From assembly GCA_000092065.1 (NCBI GenBank), contig CP000586.1: 64,000 nucleotides of DNA. One strand, 5' to 3'. Shown in pieces: positions 9,315 to 52,328 of the stretch (positions are counted from its first letter, which is position 1; each line of letters starts with the position of its first letter). The notes below the pieces were generated by a model. The model was not told the DNA's origin and made no database searches. It saw only the letters and a list, made by a program, of their open reading frames with translations. Made by a program: the position numbers and the translations under genes. The DNA is from Ostreococcus lucimarinus (lineage: Eukaryota).

Positions 9315-11306
9315 ATGCCCTCGCGACGCGCGTCCGCGCTCGCGCGCGCGTCGCCGATCGCCGCGCTCGCGACGCTCGCGACGCTCGCGCGCGCCGACCA
9401 AACAATCCAGCGCGCGCACAAACTCGACGACGAGTTCGCGTCGAGCGCGATGCTGAGGTGCGAATCGTGCGCCGCGGTGACGCACGCGTCGATGGTGCAC
9501 ATCGACCGACTCAAGGCGCGCAAGATGGCGATGATGGGGTCGAGCGAGGTGGGCGACGGGGAAGTGGATTGGGCGGAGGCGTGCGAGACGCGCTTCGCGG
9601 CTGGGAGCGCGCGGTACGGATACAAGACGGTCGCGAACGAGACGCACATCGTCGGACCGGGAATCGATGTGTTCGCGAGCGTGGATGGAAAAGTGAGGGA
9701 TCGCGAAGGGGTGACGACGCAGCTGTACGCGAGGTGTAAGGCGTTGATGTACGAGTTGAACGATTTCAGCATCGCGGAGACGTACGCCGAGGCGGAGGCG
9801 GCGGTGGAAAAGTCGGGCGCGAAGGGCGCGGAGAAGCCGACGGCTGTGTTCATGAAGTTGTTAGACAAGAATTGCGTGGAAAACGTGAAAATGTGCGAGA
9901 GTGTCGATTGGTTCAAGGATGCGTTGTCAAAGTCGTTAGAGGAGTCGACGGAAGCGGCGACCGCGGCGGCGTCTGAACTGTCTAACGCGACGGTGGATGA
10001 GAATAACCTCGTAAACATCACCTTGGCCAATGAAAAGTGCAACAACGAGGATGACGAGCGCGCTATTTCTATTTCTTCCGCAGCGTGTGATGTACTCGTG
10101 AGAGAGCTTTTAAAGAAGGGTGACGAGAATACGAGAGCCTTTCACAATTTCACCGGCGAGGCGACAAAGTATGAAAAGCTCCTCGAGCGCGGCGGGGAAA
10201 AAAAGCTCGACGACGACGATGTGGACAAAGATGGTGATGTCCATGAGCTGTACGCGGATGCCATGTTGAATGCATCACAGATTAAAGCAAACATAACTCT
10301 GGCACGCGCAGCGGGCTACTTTTCGAGCGCGTTGGACATCGATTCCGAAAACTACGCCGCACGACACAATCTCGCCTACGCGTACAAGAGCGCCAAGAAC
10401 TGGACCGCGGCGAAGGATCACTTGTACATCATTGTCGCGAGTGAGCGTGCGAATGATATGGCGAGTGAAACGCGCGCCGAAAGTTTGAAGCTTTTATGTG
10501 AAGTCGAGTTCCACGATAAAAACGTGACTGGCGCCCTCAGCGCGTGTCGAAAAGGTGTCGAGTTGGACCAGTACAATTTCCACACCCTTCGGCTTTTGGC
10601 ACAAATTCACGTCGTTCGTTTCTTCGACGAGGTCGAGGCGATTCGTGCGACTGATGAAGACGATGTTCAAGAAGAGAGACAGCACAATATCGCGCACGAG
10701 CTCGTCCAAGCGCTCGATTTGTTCACGCGAGCCTTGGTCCTCAATCCGGTGAAGAATGAAATCGCGCAACTCGGCATGACTATTTATTTCTTGCAAGCGG
10801 CGCAAGACGCCGCTCTCAAGAAGCTCACCCGCGAGCAGCTTCAGGTACTCAAGAACGCTCGTCACTTTTGCTCGCGCAGCGGTACAGACGCGGACAGCGC
10901 GTGCGCAGACATGCTCGAACTCGCGGGTCAACACATGTTCGAAAAAGGCTTCATCGCCATCGGCAACGACGCCCTACAAATGGCGCTCGTCCTCGACAAG
11001 GCGCGCACGCAGCTTTGGTCCAGCCTCGGCTACGGTTTTATGACCATCGGCAAATTCAAACTCGCCAAAGTCGCCTTCGACAAAGCCAAAGAATCCGACG
11101 AAACCTTCACCCTTTCCTCCACCGTCGAAGACCTCTTCCGGCGCGGCGTCGACTTTGAGACCAAGCTCGACGAAGACCGCGCCACGGCGTCCGCGTCCTG
11201 GACCGAGAACCGCCGTCCGAACAAAGACGAGCGCGCCGAGCTCGCCAAGGAAGTCACCGCCAAGCTCGGCGCCGTTCGCGGCGTCGCCAAGCACGACGAA
11301 TTGTAA
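9315..11306 (+). CDS. secreted protein: signal peptide + Canopy/DUF3456-like saposin-type Cys domain + TPR repeats
   Basis: The signal peptide MPSRRASALARASPIAALATLATLARA is followed by cysteines spaced as in CNPY proteins (CESCAAV..EACE..YG..CKALMYE..CVENVKMC). TPR-like repeats follow. The family assignment is tentative. Confidence 0.5.
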   Translation: MPSRRASALARASPIAALATLATLARADQTIQRAHKLDDEFASSAMLRCESCAAVTHASMVHIDRLKARKMAMMGSSEVGDGEVDWAEACETRFAAGSARYGYKTVANETHIVGPGIDVFASVDGKVRDREGVTTQLYARCKALMYELNDFSIAETYAEAEAAVEKSGAKGAEKPTAVFMKLLDKNCVENVKMCESVDWFKDALSKSLEESTEAATAAASELSNATVDENNLVNITLANEKCNNEDDERAISISSAACDVLVRELLKKGDENTRAFHNFTGEATKYEKLLERGGEKKLDDDDVDKDGDVHELYADAMLNASQIKANITLARAAGYFSSALDIDSENYAARHNLAYAYKSAKNWTAAKDHLYIIVASERANDMASETRAESLKLLCEVEFHDKNVTGALSACRKGVELDQYNFHTLRLLAQIHVVRFFDEVEAIRATDEDDVQEERQHNIAHELVQALDLFTRALVLNPVKNEIAQLGMTIYFLQAAQDAALKKLTREQLQVLKNARHFCSRSGTDADSACADMLELAGQHMFEKGFIAIGNDALQMALVLDKARTQLWSSLGYGFMTIGKFKLAKVAFDKAKESDETFTLSSTVEDLFRRGVDFETKLDEDRATASASWTENRRPNKDERAELAKEVTAKLGAVRGVAKHDEL

Positions 11307-42153: not shown

Positions 42154-45100
42154 TTAAATATTTGCGTCGGGCGCAGACGCAGCCGCGCGGGCTCGCCGCG
42201 CGCGGAATCGACGCTGAAGTTTTAAGACGACGAGCATGACGCTCATGGAAATTGGCTTGCCGTCGAGATCAAACAATTCGTTCTCGTCGCCTTCTTCTGC
42301 GATTTCCATCTCGCGAATGGACGCAAAAGAGTCCCCGCGAAGTTCATCGGCGGCTTGTTCTTTGCGAGAAAGTTCTCTGACGAGAGTCGCTCTTCGACGG
42401 ACTTTGTTTCGAAGTCTCAAGAGAGAAGCCCGTTTGGCGTTTCTCCGATCCTCCTCGAGTTCGCGGCGAATTTCGAGCGGGAGGTAGTTGAGATCCACAC
42501 CCATAGCCTTGGCCGTAAAAGCCTGCAAGAGCTCGGTGTAATGAAGAAACCTCGACCCTCCTTGTAGATTGAGCGATCGAACGTGGTTGAGCATGCCCAA
42601 GTCAGTGACGCGCTTGCCCTTCAAACCCAATGGTTTTGGCGTGGCGAGAATGATGGCCTTTACGTCGATCGCGCTGACGAAACCGGTGAGATCTGGGTCG
42701 AACTTTTTCCAAACTCTGCGGAAAGCCTTGACGTCTTCAGGAGTCACGTTCTCATTCTCAGCTTCCTTTCTACTCATCGAATAGTTATCGAGCACGACAG
42801 CGATGAGTAAGTTGAGAATAATGAACGAAGAGAAAGCGACAAAGCTGACAAAGTAAACTGGAGCGACGGCGGTGCCGCAACACGTCCCGATGGCGCAATC
42901 GAAAGAAGCGTCGCAGTTTTTCTTGTTCATGCAATCATTCATGATCTCTTGCCACCCCTCGCCGGTCAACATCCGCAAAAGCGTGGAGAGGGAATTTCCA
43001 AAAGTTTTGAAGTTTGCGTGCCTATTGAGCGCTTCGCCATACGCGAGACGCCCGAAGACTTGTGTGCCTAATATGGCGTATATAAAAAACAGCAGCGCCA
43101 ACAACAGAGATATGTTGCCGAGCGCAGGAATTGTCATCACCAGCGTCTGGAACAACGTGTTCAATGATTTCCACTTTTTCACCATACGGAAAACTCTGCA
43201 GATGCGCAGAGCGCGGAACGCGCTAGATCCCGTTCCCGACTGCAAAATTGCACCCAAGATGGACGTTACGACGATGATAAAGTCGAACACATTCCAACCG
43301 GATGAAAAGTAACGTCGCGGGTACAGCGCGCCAATTTTCATCATCGCTTCAACTGCAAACGCAGCCGTGAAGATGTAGTTCAACACATCCAATGCAAACT
43401 TCTTTGAGGAGCTGTCGTGATCCGTCTCCGTCATGAGCACCACGGTGTTAATGAAGATGATAACCATGATGCTCGCATCAAATCTTGTGTCGTTGATCAA
43501 TTGGAAGAGCTTTGCGCGCCACTTTTGATGAGGCGGTCTTCTGAAAAATGATTGTCGAGCGGTGAAGTTCCTGTTGCGCTGCTGAGCAACCCACCTTGCC
43601 TGTGACTCGCTCATAATGGTGCGCGTCAGCGACGTCGTCGATATCTTCAAAAAGTTGTCGATGACGATACCGATGCACATATTGAACAAGAAGAAGTTCG
43701 ACAGAACGATAAAAATGAGGAAATACCACGTCGCGACTGGAGTACGATCTCGCACGGGCGCCACATCCGTGCCCACGGCGTCAGCTGCGTTGAACATAGT
43801 CACTGTCCACCCTTCGCCAGACGTCGTCTCAAACAACGTGAGCATTGCTCGTGGGAAAGAGTCAAAGTTGCTGTCAGCACTCTCCCAATCTCGAGTGACA
43901 TAAACCGCAGATGTGTAGCTGCCAGTGCATGCAGATTCGGTCGTTTTGGTGTAGTCGTTGCACGAAGACGTTATGACATCCCAAGTCCGCACACTCGTGC
44001 CGTTTGACCAAGAATCGACGCACGCCGATTTAGTGAGAATCGTGGGATCGGAGCAACTTTTAAACTTACCCATGAACAACGACATTCCTGCGATAGCAAA
44101 TATGATCCACACAATCAACGATACCAGAAGCACGTACACGAGACTCGGAAGCGATGCAATGAGCGCGTTGATTACCACTTTTAACCCTTGTACTCGCCCG
44201 AGAAGTCGAAGCGGTCGCAAAACGCGCAAAGTACGTAACGCACGAACCCATTTAAGATCCGCGCTGGATCCGAGACCCATACCGAGCAATCCGAAAAACA
44301 CGATAGTGCCATCGAGAACGTTCCACGGGTTCTTCAAGTACGAGTACTTATCGGCGTTGAACATGCCTAACGCGATCCACTTCATCAACAACTCCACCAC
44401 AAATGCAGAAGTGAAACAGTAATCAAGAATTTCTGCTCTCTCCTCAAAGTTTGGATTGTCCATATTCTCTGGCGTCTCCCAACACATGGTTATACTCGAG
44501 GCAATGATCAACATAAGAATGAACCAGTCAAATCGCCTGTCGTCCGCGATCGCGAAGCACGCTTTACGGACTGGGTGCGATGGCTTGAACAATCCAAAAA
44601 AGCTGCTTTGTTCAAACTTAGTGAGCGGAACTTTACTAAGCGCCCCTGGCTGCTTCTTCTGCATGTCCTTCGGACTCATAATGACGCTGGTTGTCTCAGC
44701 GCTACTTTCTTCCTCAATCATCTTTCTGGCTCGCTGCAATCTCAAATTTTCAACTTTAGCCGCTGCTTTTCTCTTCTCTCTCTTCAGCAATTCGTGGGCA
44801 AAATGTGCAAATCTCGTCGCAGTTTGGGATGGCTCATTATTTGCGCTATCATTCGACTCACGACTACGGACACTGTCCGATTTAGTCATTCGCATCCCAG
44901 CAAACACGCCAAAGATACTTTGTTTCTTCGCAGCCCTACTCTCTTGCAGTTGCTCTTGCAGGACTTCTTTGCGATTGTCAAAGTTGCTCAGCAAGATGGC
45001 GATGAGCGAGTTGAGAATGATAAAGTCGCCCAGAATGAGGACGACCACGAAATACAGAAGAGCGACTTTCGCGGTGGTGAACATGGTGTCATACATCACT

Positions 45101-47601
45101 AATGGCCAATCCTCGTGCGTGATGACTTGCACGACAGTAATAATAGCGTTGTTGAAGGTGTCAAAGTTCGACCGCGGCTTTGGGTCAATCTTACAGTAAT
45201 TGCCGCCAAAAAGTTGCATCCCGACGAGCGCAAAAATCAAAACAAATAGACACAAAATCGCTAGAAAACTCGATAAATCGACCAGAGTCTTCCAAATTGT
45301 TTTAAGCGTGCTCTGTAGAGACTGCCACGTTCGCATCAACTTGAGGATTCGGAAAACTCGGAGCGCGCGAAGGACGGTGAATTTTGACTTGCCTTCACCT
45401 CCATTCAAGCCGAGTTCAATACAAGACACGAGCACAATCCCCGCATCCAACCAATTCATGCGATCACGCACGTACTCAGGTATACCAAGCGCTACGACTT
45501 TAATCAATAATTCAAACATGAAAATCGCAGTAAACGCCAGATTCGCGTTTTCCAGCGCCTCTGAGTAACTGTTAGACATGCCGTCGTATTCCATCGCGAG
45601 CACGAGTGTGTTCAACAAAATACTGAAGTTGATGACCATGAAGAAAAAATCACCATCCACGAACTTCCGCGCACGTGGTTGTACGAAGTTCTTTATTCTG
45701 ACGAGTTGCGTTTTGATCCACTCGAGAGTTTGACTGCGTTTGTGGCGCACGACGGACGCGCTCATTGCTTCTCCTAACCCGTCATTCGTGGCACTTTCTG
45801 AGCGTGATAGCGCCTGGATAGCTCTTTCGAAGGTGGAGAAGCTCCCACTCGAGACTCTTTGCAACTCATCCATAATATTCGCGTCGTAAACCATGGTGAT
45901 GATGGCGAGTGCCAAGTTCAATATCACGAACGATCCAAAAAATATCACGGGCAGGAACCACATCACGACCGCAGGCGATACTGAATCTATGAGGTCTAAC
46001 ATCACGGGCGACCAATACTCGAGGGTTATCGTCTGGAAGATCACGAGCCAAGACCACCAGACGCTATCGAAACTCGCGTATCCATAGTTTGGATTTTCGT
46101 GATCTAAACACTCTTGGCCGCTGGGGCACTGCCACGCGGCTTGGGCGGTGGTTCCACATGCTTGATCTTCGTTCTTTTTCAGCAAAACTGCGTCACCAGA
46201 AGCGCGTTTGATGCATCGTACGTATTCTTGCGCCGTGTAACTCTCGCACGGCACGCTTGGCGGAAGTACATCGAAGCACCGTGTTCTCATCTTTCCGGCA
46301 AAGAACTGCACGCCAATGATACCGAAAATGCAGAAGAATAGCAAAAAGAATACAATCACGTTCGCAAGAAGTGGTAGAGACTTCAACATTGTCTCGATCA
46401 GCAATCGAAGCGATGGGAACATGCTAATCGTTCGCAGCGGACGCAGAATTCGCACTGTTCTTAAGGTGGACACGTTTGACCCCATATCGCCTGGCAGGAG
46501 GGCGACGACGGACACGATGACAATGCCAAAGTCCATCACGTTCCACGAGTCGCGTAAATACGCCCCCGAGTTTTTTGTATTCAATTTACCCACCACACCG
46601 AACGCTATCATCTTCAGCAACGCCTCGAGGGTGAATAAAATAGTGAACGTGAGTTCGCTCCGCTCCGCCGCGTCGTTCCTCGCCCCTCGCGTGGCAAACT
46701 GCCCGCACCCTCTACCCTCCAAGCGCTCGGGTTCGCTGAGGCACAGCAAAATCGTATTCGCAGCGATAATCAGCAGTACGATCCAATCAAACTCGTGTCT
46801 CTCGACGAGCTGAATGCAAAACTTGCGAATCGGGTTCTCCGCCCCGAACACCCCGAACGACTTTTCAGCGTAAATCTTCCCACTCACTCCCACGACTAAG
46901 CTATCCTCGCCCTCGATCGACGCATTTCCCGACGCTGACTCTTGCCTCGCCGCACTCACGTTCGCACTTCGTTCTTTCCCACTCTTCGTGTGTTCGCCCA
47001 AGCGATGATAAATGTCCACCAATTGTTCGCCTCGTTCGTCTCGCTCGCCGTCGTCGTCGCTTGAGTGGGAATCTCTCGCCCCGTCCCGATCGATGCCGTA
47101 ATACGATCCATCATCACCATCACCCTCATCGTCGGAATCGTCGCTCGAGCACGGCGCCGGTCCCGCGCGCGTCGCCGCTCCCGCGCGCCGCGTTTCGTCC
47201 TCCGTCTCGCGCTCGCCGCTCGAATTCCCATCGCTCGAATCCGCGCTCCCGTGTCGCATCACCAGCTCCGCGAACGCGACGGACGACAGCGACGCCCCCC
47301 CGCTCGCGCGTCTTCGTCCCTCGCGCGCGTTTTGCGACGCATCGCGCGCGACGAACGCACCGATCGTCCCCGCGCGTCGTGCCTCCGAATTCGCGTTCGC
47401 GTCGTCGTCGTCTTCATCGCGCGCCCTCGCGCCGCCGCGCGCGTCGCGCCGCCGCGTCGGCGCGTCGCCGGAGTCCGACTCCACGCCCCACCGGCTCGGC
47501 GCCATCGGCATCGCGCGCGGCGCGCGCGCGCGTCGTCGTCTGTCGGCCGGGGCGGCCGGTCTCGTGTCGCAGCGGTAAAAAACACGGACCACGTCGCGCA
47601 T
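42154..47601 (-). CDS. four-domain voltage-gated Ca2+ channel alpha subunit (Cav-like, EEEE selectivity filter)
   Basis: Four homologous 6-TM domains with arginine-ladder S4 segments (RTVRILRPLRTI; LRALRVFRILKLMR; VRALRTLRVLRPLRLL; RALRICRVFRMVKK). Pore loops TLEYW / THEDW / TSGEGW / TGEGW give Glu in all four domains. There is a C-terminal IQ-like basic motif. The ORF-track start is a GTG; the first ATG is at 47601 and the true start is uncertain. Confidence 0.85.
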   Translation of the reverse strand: MRDVVRVFYRCDTRPAAPADRRRRARAPRAMPMAPSRWGVESDSGDAPTRRRDARGGARARDEDDDDANANSEARRAGTIGAFVARDASQNAREGRRRASGGASLSSVAFAELVMRHGSADSSDGNSSGERETEDETRRAGAATRAGPAPCSSDDSDDEGDGDDGSYYGIDRDGARDSHSSDDDGERDERGEQLVDIYHRLGEHTKSGKERSANVSAARQESASGNASIEGEDSLVVGVSGKIYAEKSFGVFGAENPIRKFCIQLVERHEFDWIVLLIIAANTILLCLSEPERLEGRGCGQFATRGARNDAAERSELTFTILFTLEALLKMIAFGVVGKLNTKNSGAYLRDSWNVMDFGIVIVSVVALLPGDMGSNVSTLRTVRILRPLRTISMFPSLRLLIETMLKSLPLLANVIVFFLLFFCIFGIIGVQFFAGKMRTRCFDVLPPSVPCESYTAQEYVRCIKRASGDAVLLKKNEDQACGTTAQAAWQCPSGQECLDHENPNYGYASFDSVWWSWLVIFQTITLEYWSPVMLDLIDSVSPAVVMWFLPVIFFGSFVILNLALAIITMVYDANIMDELQRVSSGSFSTFERAIQALSRSESATNDGLGEAMSASVVRHKRSQTLEWIKTQLVRIKNFVQPRARKFVDGDFFFMVINFSILLNTLVLAMEYDGMSNSYSEALENANLAFTAIFMFELLIKVVALGIPEYVRDRMNWLDAGIVLVSCIELGLNGGEGKSKFTVLRALRVFRILKLMRTWQSLQSTLKTIWKTLVDLSSFLAILCLFVLIFALVGMQLFGGNYCKIDPKPRSNFDTFNNAIITVVQVITHEDWPLVMYDTMFTTAKVALLYFVVVLILGDFIILNSLIAILLSNFDNRKEVLQEQLQESRAAKKQSIFGVFAGMRMTKSDSVRSRESNDSANNEPSQTATRFAHFAHELLKREKRKAAAKVENLRLQRARKMIEEESSAETTSVIMSPKDMQKKQPGALSKVPLTKFEQSSFFGLFKPSHPVRKACFAIADDRRFDWFILMLIIASSITMCWETPENMDNPNFEERAEILDYCFTSAFVVELLMKWIALGMFNADKYSYLKNPWNVLDGTIVFFGLLGMGLGSSADLKWVRALRTLRVLRPLRLLGRVQGLKVVINALIASLPSLVYVLLVSLIVWIIFAIAGMSLFMGKFKSCSDPTILTKSACVDSWSNGTSVRTWDVITSSCNDYTKTTESACTGSYTSAVYVTRDWESADSNFDSFPRAMLTLFETTSGEGWTVTMFNAADAVGTDVAPVRDRTPVATWYFLIFIVLSNFFLFNMCIGIVIDNFLKISTTSLTRTIMSESQARWVAQQRNRNFTARQSFFRRPPHQKWRAKLFQLINDTRFDASIMVIIFINTVVLMTETDHDSSSKKFALDVLNYIFTAAFAVEAMMKIGALYPRRYFSSGWNVFDFIIVVTSILGAILQSGTGSSAFRALRICRVFRMVKKWKSLNTLFQTLVMTIPALGNISLLLALLFFIYAILGTQVFGRLAYGEALNRHANFKTFGNSLSTLLRMLTGEGWQEIMNDCMNKKNCDASFDCAIGTCCGTAVAPVYFVSFVAFSSFIILNLLIAVVLDNYSMSRKEAENENVTPEDVKAFRRVWKKFDPDLTGFVSAIDVKAIILATPKPLGLKGKRVTDLGMLNHVRSLNLQGGSRFLHYTELLQAFTAKAMGVDLNYLPLEIRRELEEDRRNAKRASLLRLRNKVRRRATLVRELSRKEQAADELRGDSFASIREMEIAEEGDENELFDLDGKPISMSVMLVVLKLQRRFRARRARAAASAPDANI

Positions 47602-47809
47602 CGGATCGCGTCGCGACGCGCGTCGCGGCGTCGCGCGCTCGCGCACTCGCGCGCGCGCGAACGCGCGGAACGACGCGGGAGAGGCGTTTACACCGCGCGA
47701 AGACGCGCGAGACGCGCGAAAGCGGCGCGCGAAACGGTGAAGACGAACGAGTCGAACGAATCTCCGCGCGGGTGGTTGAAAACGCCGCGACGAGGACGAG
47801 GCGCGCGCG

Positions 47810-48658
47810 ATGACGACGCCGCGCGCGCGAACGGAGCGACGGGAGGGATCGCCGCGACCGTCGACGGCGCAGAGTGAGGCGAATCAGCGAACGCCGCACG
47901 GAGGAAGGGCGCTGTCGGAGGCGTACTTCGCCACGGGGGCGACGGCGTTTTTGGAGCGAGCGCTGACGCGACGCACGGGGGCGCACGCGGCGACGACGGT
48001 CGGGACGTTTCATCGAGGAAAACGAGGGAAGGGGGGGGTGAGAAGACGACTGGGAGGTGCGACGACGTCGACGGTGGGCGATGCGCGCGGTCACGGGGGC
48101 GGGGCGCGGGAGGTGGTGCGCGTGCGATGGGACCCGGAGAATCCGTACGCGGCGACGTTCGGCGAGCTGTTGGACGTGTTTTGGGATAGTCACGATCCCA
48201 CGCACGCGCCGATCGATGATTTGCACGCGAGCGTGGTTTTTGTGACGAGCGAAAGCCAGCGTGAGGAGACGCTGCGGAGCATCGAACAGAAGACCGACGC
48301 GTATCGCGACGCGGACGTGCTCACGCGCATGGAGTCGGCCGTCGACTACAGATTTACGGAGGCGCCGGAGCGATTTCAAAGAAGGTTGCAGCGCGCGAGC
48401 GAAGACGAGGGCAGTAGAGAGGGATCGATGCGAAACGGCGGCAGCGCGCGATCGTCGATGGATGAGCGCGGGAGCCCGAATGGAAGTACGAGCGAAGCAT
48501 CGCAAAGCACGGATGCACCGCAAAGAACGAGAACTCTTTTGGGTTCGGTGAACGCGACGCTTCATTGGGCGGTGGATTGGACGAAAGTGATCGCAGTGCA
48601 CGGGGCAGCGTATTTAGTTCGAGGCGGCGCCGAAAACGAGCGCAAGACTCCGAGATGA
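47810..48658 (+). CDS. MsrA-fold protein lacking the catalytic cysteine (peptide methionine sulfoxide reductase A-like)
   Basis: Aligns to MsrA (AYFATGATAFLERAL..VVRVRWDPENPYAATFGELLDVFWDSHDPT). The GCFWG active-site motif reads GATAF, so the nucleophilic Cys is absent. Confidence 0.55.
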   Translation: MTTPRARTERREGSPRPSTAQSEANQRTPHGGRALSEAYFATGATAFLERALTRRTGAHAATTVGTFHRGKRGKGGVRRRLGGATTSTVGDARGHGGGAREVVRVRWDPENPYAATFGELLDVFWDSHDPTHAPIDDLHASVVFVTSESQREETLRSIEQKTDAYRDADVLTRMESAVDYRFTEAPERFQRRLQRASEDEGSREGSMRNGGSARSSMDERGSPNGSTSEASQSTDAPQRTRTLLGSVNATLHWAVDWTKVIAVHGAAYLVRGGAENERKTPR

Positions 48659-48737: not shown

Positions 48738-51700
48738 TTATATCGCGACGGATCGAACTTGTTCGAGCTTCTTTAGAATTTCGCCCGGCGTACGATCCAT
48801 TTCTTCCGCGATTCTCCGTTGAACGTCAGCCGGTAAAGCGCCGAACTGCTCGCACAAGTCACCGTCGATGACATTTTTGACCGGCGCGTAGTACGACCGG
48901 AATGCCATGTGGTCGCGCCCGACTATGGATGGCGCTTCCTGGCGCATGTGCATTTCTAAATGAGTGAAGAACTCGATCTCCGATCGAGAGCTGAACGGTA
49001 ACAAACATCCGATACCGCCCATGAAAGTGCCGTACATGATGATCTCGATCCCTCCCGGTTGTAGTGCGCCCTTCGTGAGCGCGCACACCGTCTCCCCGAT
49101 GTATGTTTGCGCAGAGGTTTCAGACTTGTTCGGCGCACCGTTCAATACACCTTGCGAATAAATGTTCTTACCGCCTGTGGGGTCATCGTCCATGTCCTCA
49201 CTGACATCCTTCGGTAGGCGATTGACGAAAATATTCCCAAACTTATCCGCACCGGCGAGTGTATCGTAATCTAAAGGCAGCGTCGCCGTGATGTATCGCG
49301 GCTTCGTGTCGTCGGCAAAGATGTATATACTACCCTCATCCGCCTTGTACTTGACGTAGTGAATAGACTCCTGCACGTCACCGACGTATATTCTATCTCC
49401 CGCCGCGTGCAGAGTGGTGATGAAGTTTGGAAAGTTCCTGTTCTCAACCTTGCGCAAGAGTTTCTTCTTACCGTAGTCGTAAATGCGCAACGAATTGTTC
49501 ACGCCCGCCAGCAGGTGACCTTTGTATCCACACAACGCCCCGACCGGACCATCCGTCGGGGTGGAGTGCACCAAATTGAGCGTCCTACCATCGTTACCGT
49601 ATCTGTACAAATGGATGAAACCACCATCGCAGTTGCGCGGCGCAAACGTGAGGTTCACCGCCGTACCGACGGCAAGGAGTAACTCATTCGGGCCTGTCAG
49701 GAAGACGTGGCACAAACTGAGCGCGGCTTCACTCTTGTGTAGCTCCAGCACGAACGTCGATTTCGCCTCCTTAGGATCGACGATTCGTACGCACGCCGCC
49801 CACGTTCCAGGCGAGCTCTTCGGCGCGCCAAACTGTTCGACGGGTAGCATCTTTGCTTCCTCCTCGTCTTCGTCGTTCGTTTCGGGCGCTTCGTCTGCGG
49901 GCGTTGCTTCGGGACCTTCGCGTTCGCCGACTGGAACCGTGCACTGGTCACTTTCGATCAGCGCAACCATCTTCGTATCAGGATTGGCGCTCATCGCGCG
50001 CGGAGTGTAACGGAGCTTGACCGTGGTCTGGTTGAAGTTTTCGCCCAAACGCTCGATGCTCGCGATGCGTAACGTCTGGTTTGAAATCGCCACGACGCCT
50101 TCGGGGCATTGCTCGCTGTTGAACGAACACACCTCTTCCAGCGGGACGTACGAAATTGGTGCGAGCACGAACGTTCCCTTTTCAGAGTATCCCAACCAAG
50201 GTCGAGATGACAACGCGACGAGAGCCGGAGCGCCACGAACGCTTGTACGAACAAGCTTCGGCGCACGAGCGCCTAAAAAGCGCATGCGCATATCACTCAG
50301 TTGTCCAGAAACTTGATCAATCGTCGCACGTATCAAAACGCCATTCGCCATGCCCACATTGAGCAACAAACCACCTTGAGTGGACTCCGTACCCGCGGTT
50401 TGGAGGACCAACAAGCTGGACGGCGCCGAGCCCTTGAGCGCTTGCACGGCTAACGTTTGCAAGCAGTCATCCGGGTTGAGGCTCATGACGCGCACGGTGC
50501 CGTCGTACGAACCCATGGCGAGGAATCTATTTCTCAGCGCACCCTCAGGAACCGGACCGATATCCAAACACGCAATGTCGCCGCTAGTCTCCAGCTTTTC
50601 AACTTCAATGAGTTGACCGGCCGAATCTAACTCAAAGTAAATCACTTCGCCGCCGGTGAGCGCGATGACAACTTGCTTGCTGTTGCACGTGCACTTTGAG
50701 ATTTGCTTGCGTCCAGGAGTGCGCCACTCATTGATGCGCTTATCCGCCTTGATGTGGCGCAAACCGCCCGGATGAATCTGAAGTAAAGATTCATCGCTCA
50801 TGAGACACGCCTGAAGCGTCGTCGTAGTTCCTAAAATCCCGCTGTCGTTCACTTCACTGACGGTGTCTCCGATGGACAATACCAGCGTTGCGTTCAAGAA
50901 CGAGACGATGATATACGAATCATACTCTTCCGACGAGCTCTTCTTCACCGTGAAGATGGCGTTCGGCTGGCCCGGAAGTGGGCTCATCGCCAATTCGTTC
51001 ATGGCGATGCCTTGCCGCAAAATGCGAAGCGATGAACGAGCGCCAGTTCCGCAAAGCGTGTACAATTGTGGCATTTCCTCTTCCGTCAAGTTGTGTGCCT
51101 GCATGTCTAGCACAGGACACAAACTATCTATAGTATCGATCGTGTATAAGTTGGTCAAAGGTCGCGGGTCGAAGAATACGGGCTCGTAGCCTTCCTCCGT
51201 TTCCATGAGCGATGCCGAGCTGCTTTCAACCGCGTCATCGTCGCCAATGCCGGCAAACTGATACAGCGCGTGATTTCCGAATTCACTCGCCGCGAACAAG
51301 AAACCAGTCTTCAACACGCACAAGCTTACACACGGGGGAATAGTGTCAAAATACTTCACTTTGACTTCACTCACTGTTTCCCCGGAGTAGTCGATGGTGA
51401 GTTTGTAAATGTCCCCGTACTCTGACTGCGCCAAAAAGAAGAAAGAATTCTTCGATCTGTGGCTCGCGGAGGACACAATCAACACCCCTCGATCAGCCGC
51501 CAAAGAATTTCGACGCGGGATCACCGCCCGAACTTCGTCGTGGTTCTGATGTCTGTAAATGACAAAGTTTTCGCAGCACACCAAGACACCACCCGGACCG
51601 TCGCTTCCGCCTGGCACGGGAATCAAATGGTTTGCGCCGTTATCGATCGGCTCGCTCCACTTGCGTACGACGTGGTTCAAACCTAAATCGAGTTCGTAGT

Positions 51701-52328
51701 ACGTCAAATGCTTCTGCGCCTCCGCCACGGCTTCGCCACTCGGGTCTGCGTCCGCATCGCCGTAGTCCAACTCGATCGCCGCGAAAATCGGATTGTCCAA
51801 TCCGCAATCTAACGCGCACATGTGAAACACGATCGTGTGCGACTTATTCGCCTCAAGCGGTGATGAAATAGTCAAGTTTGCCTCATTATCTCTGTTCATC
51901 ACGTACACCAGCTTATTCTTCTCCACCGCGCCCAGACAAATGGCTCGCCCCTTTGGGTCCGCGCACAAAAACTGCCCCGGCACGATCCTTCGGCATCCCG
52001 TCTTCCCATACGTCTCCTGATGCACCTTCACGAACGCATTCTTTTCCTTATCAAACTGCAGCACCACCACCCGACCGCTGTCGCTTCCGAGGACGAGATA
52101 ATCTCGATTCGCTCCCGCCAGGCGCAGCGTCGCGATCGACCGCGCGATCCCGAACGCCTCCACGCTCGTCACGCTCTGCACCCGTCCGCTCTCATCCGGT
52201 CGCAGCAGCTCGACGACCTTATTTCGCAGCACCACGATCTCCTGCGCCTTGCTCGCGCTGAAGTTTCCGTACACCGCGGCGTTGATTCCGCTCGACTTCT
52301 GCAGCGTGAGATTGTACAAGTGCACCAT
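48738..52328 (-). CDS. SF3B3: splicing factor 3B subunit 3 (SF3B3/SAP130)
   Basis: Colinear similarity to SF3B3 from residue 1 (MVHLYNLTLQKSSGINAAVYGNFS..EIVVLRNKVVELLRPD..GCRRIVPGQFLCADPKGRA). The length (1196 aa) fits. Confidence 0.9.
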   Translation of the reverse strand: MVHLYNLTLQKSSGINAAVYGNFSASKAQEIVVLRNKVVELLRPDESGRVQSVTSVEAFGIARSIATLRLAGANRDYLVLGSDSGRVVVLQFDKEKNAFVKVHQETYGKTGCRRIVPGQFLCADPKGRAICLGAVEKNKLVYVMNRDNEANLTISSPLEANKSHTIVFHMCALDCGLDNPIFAAIELDYGDADADPSGEAVAEAQKHLTYYELDLGLNHVVRKWSEPIDNGANHLIPVPGGSDGPGGVLVCCENFVIYRHQNHDEVRAVIPRRNSLAADRGVLIVSSASHRSKNSFFFLAQSEYGDIYKLTIDYSGETVSEVKVKYFDTIPPCVSLCVLKTGFLFAASEFGNHALYQFAGIGDDDAVESSSASLMETEEGYEPVFFDPRPLTNLYTIDTIDSLCPVLDMQAHNLTEEEMPQLYTLCGTGARSSLRILRQGIAMNELAMSPLPGQPNAIFTVKKSSSEEYDSYIIVSFLNATLVLSIGDTVSEVNDSGILGTTTTLQACLMSDESLLQIHPGGLRHIKADKRINEWRTPGRKQISKCTCNSKQVVIALTGGEVIYFELDSAGQLIEVEKLETSGDIACLDIGPVPEGALRNRFLAMGSYDGTVRVMSLNPDDCLQTLAVQALKGSAPSSLLVLQTAGTESTQGGLLLNVGMANGVLIRATIDQVSGQLSDMRMRFLGARAPKLVRTSVRGAPALVALSSRPWLGYSEKGTFVLAPISYVPLEEVCSFNSEQCPEGVVAISNQTLRIASIERLGENFNQTTVKLRYTPRAMSANPDTKMVALIESDQCTVPVGEREGPEATPADEAPETNDEDEEEAKMLPVEQFGAPKSSPGTWAACVRIVDPKEAKSTFVLELHKSEAALSLCHVFLTGPNELLLAVGTAVNLTFAPRNCDGGFIHLYRYGNDGRTLNLVHSTPTDGPVGALCGYKGHLLAGVNNSLRIYDYGKKKLLRKVENRNFPNFITTLHAAGDRIYVGDVQESIHYVKYKADEGSIYIFADDTKPRYITATLPLDYDTLAGADKFGNIFVNRLPKDVSEDMDDDPTGGKNIYSQGVLNGAPNKSETSAQTYIGETVCALTKGALQPGGIEIIMYGTFMGGIGCLLPFSSRSEIEFFTHLEMHMRQEAPSIVGRDHMAFRSYYAPVKNVIDGDLCEQFGALPADVQRRIAEEMDRTPGEILKKLEQVRSVAI

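Follow-up and report, generated by a model that had tools for sequence, protein, structure and literature searches.

Reduction by peptide methionine sulfoxide reductases of the MsrA family depends on a nucleophilic cysteine (Cys), or in some members a selenocysteine (Sec), at the N-terminus of helix alpha1; the reaction passes through a sulfenic or selenenic intermediate to a disulfide, which is then reduced by thioredoxin. In Escherichia coli/Neisseria meningitidis numbering, Phe52 and Trp53 form the epsilon-methyl pocket, Tyr82 and Tyr134 are ligands of the sulfoxide oxygen and Glu94 is the catalytic acid, roles reportedly established by the Branlant and Boschi-Muller group through mutagenesis and structural studies. 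Le et al. 2018 (Protoplasma 255:1741) are said to have put forward a competition model for plant MSRAs without a catalytic Cys. Such isoforms are known from land plants, and their function is debated (PMC6162775, which cites Le et al. 2018). One selenoprotein MsrA each has been reported for Ostreococcus tauri and Ostreococcus lucimarinus (Lobanov et al. 2007, PMC2375036 Table 2), and MSRA selenoproteins have been reported in Mamiellales (PMC7539508). Here we describe a gene at 47810..48658 (+ strand, stop codon included) of a 64,000-nucleotide stretch of O. lucimarinus CCE9901 nuclear DNA (the window; contig CP000586.1 of assembly GCA_000092065.1) that encodes a Cys-free MsrA-fold protein of 282 amino acids. 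Because Ostreococcus has a separate Sec-MsrA, we regard the window gene as an additional, divergent member of the MsrA family. The two proteins share organism and fold family, and differ in that the Sec-MsrA carries Sec at the catalytic position and is encoded elsewhere in the genome; it is presumably the functional MsrA of the cell, and possibly the parent from which the window gene was duplicated.

The gene is complete and has a single exon. Its ATG is at 47810 and its TGA ends at 48658, an in-frame stop is present upstream of the ATG, and the single open reading frame (ORF) equals the NCBI/RefSeq protein model. The translation of 47810-48655(+) is identical over 282/282 residues to XP_001418218.1 / ABO96511.1 / UniProt A4RYT6, labeled 'predicted protein' by NCBI and given the automatic name 'peptide-methionine (S)-S-oxide reductase' in UniRef. 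At 47930-47950 the sequence reads gcc acg ggg gcg acg gcg ttt, encoding A41 T42 G43 A44 T45 A46 F47, exactly as they had been read in the initial annotation, which gave the motif as GATAF. Sequence reading, alignments and the structural model described below together put Ala44 (codon gcg, 47939..47941, +) at the catalytic Cys/Sec position of MsrA. The 282-aa ORF is free of Cys codons, and its only in-frame TGA is the stop, which leaves no hidden Sec codon; a GCFWG-like peptide was not found in the alternative frames of the ORF, the other two frames being Arg-rich nonsense. Among NCBI, JGI, ENA and Logan assemblies, the exact window protein was found on 9 contigs and a 282-aa member of its cluster on 471 contigs.

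The relationship to MsrA is recognizable but distant. The Pfam family PMSR (PF01625) matches at 33.9 bits (gathering threshold 23.7, E=4.6e-8), aligning residues 95-196 with profile positions 45-147 of 153 and leaving the N-terminal, active-site part of the profile unmatched. The NCBIfam equivalog TIGR00401 scores 29.3 bits, far below its equivalog cut-off of 108.1. With phmmer, MsrA chains of the PDB were matched, the best being the Clostridium oremlandii enzyme (E=4e-6). To judge by these scores, the window protein is a member of the MsrA homologous superfamily, far from a typical MsrA. An AlphaFold2 model built on multiple sequence alignment A1 had predicted local distance difference test (pLDDT) values of 81-92 at residues ~31-70 and 100-190, with disorder at 1-28, 72-97 and 199-261. 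When this model was searched against the PDB with Foldseek, 40/40 best matches were MsrA; the nearest solved structures are those of the C. oremlandii Sec/Cys MsrA (4LWJ, 4U66) and poplar MSRA (2J89). The modeled protein thus retains the MsrA alpha/beta fold, in a predicted domain of residues ~34-199 (47909..48406, +). The initial annotation had raised the question of other catalytic or recycling cysteines in a comparison with MsrA profiles; PF01625 is indeed matched, and the protein has zero cysteines.

The Pfam and phmmer alignments span residues ~74-196 only and stop short of the N-terminal motif, so we argued the equivalence of that motif with GCFWG separately. In a MAFFT alignment with Cys-bearing MsrAs, F40-A-T-G-A44-T-A-F-L-E49 (residues 40-49, 47927..47956, +; alignments A1, A4), the counterpart of MsrA F-G-x-G-C-F-W-G-V-E, pairs with F-G-A-G-C-F-W-G-V-E, and F40, G43 and E49 flanking Ala44 are conserved. 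In the model, a strand at 36-41 is followed by a helix starting from residue 45, which is the beta1-alpha1 junction. It is this combination of pairing, junction and conserved flanks that places Ala44 at the Cys/Sec position.

The losses at the active site go far beyond the nucleophile. Of the methyl pocket, Phe52 is replaced by Thr45 (Asn or Cys in orthologues) and Trp53 by Ala46 (Ala, Val or Gln in orthologues). Depending on the alignment, the sulfoxide-oxygen ligand Tyr82 (of VGYxGG) falls opposite G83, D91 or T66, in no case a Tyr; the other ligand, Tyr134 (of QYRS), is His139 in the window protein and His, Gly, Asn or Pro in the family. The Y-H-Q cleft wall has become R-F-Q. The sole active-site residue kept is Glu101 (codon gag, 48110..48112, +), equivalent to the catalytic acid Glu94 of E. 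coli MsrA and Glu55 of the C. oremlandii enzyme. An ungapped phmmer alignment sets query residue 74 opposite residue 28 of the 4w8c chain, and so E101 opposite C. oremlandii E55; the range end-points for 1ff3 (query 94 opposite chain 87) put E101 opposite E. coli 94 if that stretch is ungapped. This position is E or D in most orthologues, and T or M in the P0005-7 group. The window protein further differs from canonical MsrA (PF01625, TIGR00401) by a 3-residue NPY insertion after WDP, by a longer basic loop, and by its gain of an N-terminal TPHGGR motif, an extra linker and a hydrophobic C-terminal helix. Among the features that define MsrA membership, the nucleophilic Cys/Sec, the methyl pocket, the Tyr82/Tyr134 ligands and the recycling Cys were all found to be missing. 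Lacking a thiol or selenol, the methyl pocket and a recycling Cys, the window protein cannot follow the MsrA mechanism: given Ala44 and zero cysteines, neither the sulfenic/selenenic intermediate nor the recycling disulfide can form. We consider it highly probable that the protein is not a Met-S-sulfoxide reductase.

The family of this protein proved small and tight when gathered by a word-indexed search and by running an HMMER profile exhaustively against 1.84 billion representatives; the latter gave 79 significant matches in total, among which were only 6 family representatives plus fragments. Identity to the window protein was 99% for P0001, 87% for P0002, 77% for P0003, ~52% for P0005, P0006 and P0007, and about 34-49% for P0162, P0015, P0163, P0164, P0165 and P0018; it was 42% for P0016, which is the O. 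tauri protein XP_003079840.2 / A0A090M2B3, named 'Peptide methionine sulphoxide reductase MsrA'. Members located on long contigs all had one gene order (ARMT1-like, UQ_con, S1, DUF3456, four-domain ion channel, the MsrA-like gene, RSE1/SF3B3, DUF155, DUF4200, hydantoinase), a syntenic block of ten genes spanning ~20 kb, and are therefore orthologues at one locus. The GC content of the orthologous loci is 0.53-0.60. The P0163 cluster includes a complete ORF from an MMETSP transcriptome, so at least one orthologue is transcribed.

For conservation we aligned 11 non-redundant orthologues, after two miscalled N-termini had been restored from in-frame upstream sequence. The alignment reaches down to ~40% identity and has 32 invariant columns, with T42 and A44 among them; thus the search for orthologues with the same substitution, proposed in the initial annotation, found Cys to Ala invariant in all 11. 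G43, A46 and F47 have one exception each. Across species, the motif codons show the synonymous changes GCC/GCG, ACG/ACC, GGG/GGA, GCG/GCA, TTT/TTC and TTG/CTT. The ratio of nonsynonymous to synonymous substitution rates (dN/dS, by Nei-Gojobori) was 0.16-0.21 in the fold core (residues 100-199) and 0.18-0.22 in the motif region (residues 27-70) in comparisons with the window gene, reaching 0.48 in that region for L005 versus L006; values for the variable N-terminus, loop and linker were 0.3-1.1. In Ostreococcus and related picoalgae, purifying selection acts on this gene, a single-copy orthologue.

Some individual gene records need comment. The O. tauri orthologue P0016 is encoded at L007 10001-10720, corresponding to CAID01000006.2 344891-345610. 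Its motif, FATGACQFLE, has a Cys one residue past the Ala that is absent from all other orthologues; we had considered a Cys at +1 as a family feature, and dropped the idea when it was found in O. tauri only. The gene calls P0018/P0158 (L013 ~9900-10000) and P0015/P0144 (L015 ~9850-10000) begin too far downstream: the upstream in-frame sequence has TPHGGRR and an earlier ATG, so these database proteins are N-terminally truncated.

Conservation is concentrated in the rebuilt parts of the protein. The highest mean column identity (0.85) is shared by two neighboring segments: residues 27-36, with the new motif (R/L)TPHGGR, and residues 37-50, comprising beta1 and the former active-site motif (consensus E-A-Y-F-[AS]-T-G-A-N-A-F-L-E). 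In the window protein the family-specific N-terminal motif is R-T-P-H-G-G-R (residues 27-33, 47888..47908, +); canonical MsrA is without it, and TPHGGR is encoded in frame upstream of the shortened gene calls in L013 and L015. Mean column identity is 0.79 for APERxQRRLxRA, 0.76 for WDPxNPYAxTF...FW and 0.75 for HDP...AS, and the range given by other fold segments is 0.60-0.76. The lowest values are those of the loop 71-99 (0.43) and the linker 200-243 (0.35). The loop (48020..48106, +), a basic, Gly/Arg-rich and variable segment with a conserved RRR, replaces the loop that bears Tyr82 in MsrA; its pLDDT is <50, its net charge is +6, and R79 is invariant. In MsrA, the elements corresponding to the conserved segments line the catalytic cleft. 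The cleft was therefore rebuilt and then frozen, rather than abandoned, and this is our main argument that it still binds something.

The C-terminal part has no counterpart in canonical MsrA. After the fold domain comes a Ser/Gly/acid-rich, probably disordered linker (residues 200-243, 48407..48538, +) with conserved RASED...GS and SPNGS patches, a pLDDT of 28-35 and a dN/dS of about 0.5. The linker leads to a conserved helix, a candidate tail anchor (residues 244-271, 48539..48622, +; the predicted helix in the model spans 244-278), that reads W253-x-x-D-W257-x-K259-V-x-x-V263-H. The family pattern is W-x-x-(D/E)-W-x-K-(V/I)-x-x-V-(H/D), with W257 and V263 invariant and K259 nearly so. The helix is followed by R/K and then by a tail of 4-11 residues; in the window protein it ends 11-12 residues before the terminus. 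Over 19 residues, the maximum Kyte-Doolittle value is 0.75 in O. lucimarinus versus 1.7-2.0 in O. tauri, P0006, P0007 and P0015. Across the family, the Eisenberg mean hydrophobicity of the helix is 0.26-0.63, and its hydrophobic moment is low (0.09-0.37). No other hydrophobic segment was found in the window protein, the next-best Kyte-Doolittle window (0.65, residues 34-52) lying inside the fold, and the N-terminus is neither hydrophobic nor transit-like: it is charged, differs in length between orthologues and is missing from several of them. Tail-anchored proteins are similar in having a single C-terminal helix with basic residues and a short tail (here 4-11 residues), no N-terminal signal, and a flexible linker that parts the helix from the folded domain. 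They differ in that the O. lucimarinus helix is of marginal hydrophobicity and that its conserved D/E, K and H are unusual for a simple anchor.

We suggest, as the likeliest account of these features, that the protein is a pseudoenzyme, a repurposed non-reductase binding module of the MsrA fold that is probably membrane-tethered; its more specific components, a binding module and a membrane anchor, we put forward tentatively, at slightly under an even chance. The remodeled cleft (FATGAxAFLE, WDPxNPYA, HDP..., APERxQRRL), together with TPHGGR, would form a binding surface for another ligand or protein partner. The flexible Ser/acid-rich linker and the moderately hydrophobic C-terminal helix would tether this domain to a membrane, tail-anchored and facing the cytosol. 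The initial annotation had offered a catalytically inactive MsrA paralogue as its first option, and that option gains support from the invariant Ala in orthologues, from the replacement of the remaining active site and from the separate Sec-MsrA. It was right about the loss of Cys; it understated the extent of the change, which goes far beyond the Cys, and it overlooked the conserved hydrophobic C-terminal helix.

Several observations weigh against the proposal of a tethered binding module. The strong conservation of the cleft would suit a new catalytic activity as well as binding, and the Glu94 equivalent, as aligned, is kept in most family members. Alignments and a predicted structure are the basis of the active-site equivalences, and the Tyr82 counterpart varies (G83, D91, T66). 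The case for a tail anchor is weak in O. lucimarinus, where the Kyte-Doolittle value of 0.75 and an Eisenberg <H> of 0.31 are below the usual transmembrane thresholds. The C-terminal helix contains conserved D/E, K and H as well, its pLDDT is low, and with its conserved polar stripe it could instead be a helix for protein-protein contact.

The main rival is that the protein is a neofunctionalized enzyme, in which cleft residues (T42, E49, H59, E101, H128/D129, the Arg cluster and H30 of TPHGGR) would catalyze a non-thiol reaction. In its favor, conservation within the family peaks in the former active-site elements and in TPHGGR; purifying selection is equally strong on residues 27-70 and on the core when orthologues are compared with the window gene; and Glu101 is kept. 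However, we recognized no cofactor or catalytic motif of a known kind, the Pfam and NCBIfam scans reporting PMSR/MsrA only, and the P0005-7 group has T or M in place of Glu101. We had considered a new metal site formed by the His/Asp cluster (H128, D129, H132, D136, D137, H139); this was dropped because O. tauri and the P0163 and P0018 groups do not keep H132, D136/137 and H139, which counts equally against catalysis by the cluster. We regard the enzyme alternative as unlikely, while ranking it first among the competing explanations.

A second alternative, suggested by analogy with plants, is a dominant-negative competitor that would bind Met-S-sulfoxide proteins without reducing them, thereby modulating Msr activity or reading the oxidized state. 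The precedent of plant MSRA isoforms that lack the catalytic Cys (PMC6162775), together with the retention of the fold and of the Glu94 equivalent, speaks for it. The determinants of methionine sulfoxide (MetSO) binding are gone, however, with Phe52 changed to Thr/Asn, Trp53 to Ala/Val, Tyr82 never Tyr, Tyr134 changed to His/Gly/Asn/Pro, and YHQ to RFQ. The plant MSRA5 proteins, unlike the Ostreococcus family, keep all of these residues. We therefore think that a competitor role is improbable, more so than a new enzymatic one.

The comparison with plant MSRA5 used five database proteins (P0186 from Brassica, P0218 from Ricinus, P0286 from Phoenix, P0301 from Cicer and P0280 from Vitis) that were retrieved with a reconstructed plant MSRA5 bait sequence, our conclusions being drawn from the retrieved sequences only. 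MSRA5 resembles the window protein as an MsrA homologue without the nucleophilic Cys that is conserved across species and occurs beside active MSRAs in the same genome. All five read GSFWRSE, a single change of Cys to Ser, and keep the Phe and Trp as well as GY(A/S)GG, HAES and QYRS; by alignment, the window protein has none of GSFWRSE, GY(A/S)GG, HAES and QYRS, and the Ostreococcus protein is far more radically remodeled. The ends differ as well: MSRA5 starts with a hydrophobic, signal-like segment and ends in a different helical extension, whereas the N-terminus of the window protein is charged. The hidden Markov model (HMM) of the Ostreococcus family gave plant MSRA5 24-29 bits versus 43-71 bits for all other MsrAs tested, and BLASTP gave 34-41 bits versus 46-58 bits, a contrast somewhat biased by our taking the comparator MsrAs from the family's own best matches. 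Plant MSRA5 proteins were not among the 79 significant matches of the exhaustive HMMER search. Because plant MSRA5 are the most distant from the Ostreococcus family profile of the MsrA relatives tested, the plant and Ostreococcus losses of Cys look independent.

Single losses of the nucleophile were also seen elsewhere. Two unrelated metagenomic MsrA homologues, P0087 (FAAGSFWD) and P0041 (FGAGSFRR), have Ser for the catalytic Cys and keep much of the site, so that isolated Cys losses appear to arise sporadically outside plants and Ostreococcus. Many other non-family matches without GCFW were rejected as Cys-less candidates, being N-terminally truncated fragments; some truncated MsrA calls of this kind may result from a Sec TGA having been taken as a stop.

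A further possible objection is that the gene is a decaying pseudogene or a functionless remnant of an MsrA duplication. Every cysteine and most of the catalytic residues are gone, and the loop 71-99 and linker 200-243 are of low complexity and evolve fast (dN/dS 0.4-0.6), much as decay would predict. Decay is hard to reconcile with an ORF unbroken in each of the 11 orthologous lineages, even at ~40% identity, with the low dN/dS of the fold core and the 32 invariant columns that include the replaced motif itself, and with the transcription of one orthologue. The genome is moreover very compact and has little room for dead genes, the spacers on either side of this one being 163 bp and 79 bp. 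We conclude that a pseudogene is very unlikely. Finally, there is next to no chance that a sequencing or assembly error, a miscalled start or splice, or a recoded Sec codon masks a normal GCFWG/GUFWG site: apart from its standing as an a priori option of the initial annotation, this has in its favor only that the ORF is GC-rich, repetitive and hence error-prone, and it is contradicted by identical residues in independent assemblies (the same protein on 9 contigs) and in three other species with synonymous motif codon changes, by the lack of any in-frame TGA or Cys codon, by the upstream stop, the Arg-rich other frames and the agreement with the RefSeq model, and by a TPHGGR-to-motif region that is contiguous in all orthologues.

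Returning to the repurposed pseudoenzyme, which we favor, its practical consequence concerns annotation. In the UniRef and JGI pipelines, the JGI metagenome orthologues are called MsrA or peptide-methionine (S)-S-oxide reductase, as are A4RYT6 and A0A090M2B3. Applied to this Cys-free family, the name is an over-annotation that is spreading through UniRef and IMG. As a result, Msr capacity is overcounted in picoalgal genomes and marine metagenomes, because an MsrA-named sequence that is Cys-free cannot support MsrA chemistry. In a literature search, we found no paper on an MsrA pseudoenzyme, an MsrA-like protein or A4RYT6. Cys-less MSRAs are already known in plants, and the Ostreococcus form, as far as the alignments tell, is a more radical variant; it adds a second, by sequence scores apparently independent, type of conserved MsrA homologue without the nucleophile, and its radical remodeling suggests recruitment of the MsrA fold to non-redox roles. 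O. tauri, which is genetically manipulable and has a tiny genome and a single orthologue, makes the role of Cys-less MSRAs (PMC6162775) a tractable question.

A bolder proposal, which we think rather unlikely, is that Ostreococcus-type picoalgae reuse the MsrA scaffold as a membrane-tethered receptor or enzyme, whose cleft, TPHGGR motif and Arg cluster would recognize a ligand other than MetSO. If true, this would be the first neofunctionalized MsrA-fold protein. Speculatively, the divergently transcribed four-domain voltage-gated cation channel gene 163 bp away encodes a conceivable partner. The head-to-head arrangement of the channel and MsrA-like genes was seen at every orthologous locus; we nevertheless dropped this pairing as evidence of a functional link and keep it only as speculation, because the entire ~20-kb block of ten genes is equally conserved and the pairing is thus uninformative.

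The channel gene (42154-47646, -) encodes 1830 aa with four Ion_trans repeats (PF00520, E=4.6e-234), of the voltage-gated Na+/Ca2+ type. The GC content inside it is 0.47-0.52 versus ~0.60 for the window. Between its start codon at 47646 (-) and the MsrA-like gene lies the 163-bp divergent intergenic region (47647..47809, no strand assigned), a presumed bidirectional promoter. On the other side, an RSE1/SF3B3-type gene (48738-52328, -; 1196 aa, with the first and second Beta-prop_RSE1 domains and CPSF_A) converges on the MsrA-like gene, with only 79 bp between the two stop codons, showing the extreme compaction of this genome. Long Arg-rich ORFs (395, 250 and 270 aa) at 47414-48601 (-) and 47061-47877 (+) run antisense or out of frame to the MsrA-like gene and the 5' region of the channel gene; they appear to be a side effect of GC-rich, GCG/CGC-repetitive sequence and not genes.

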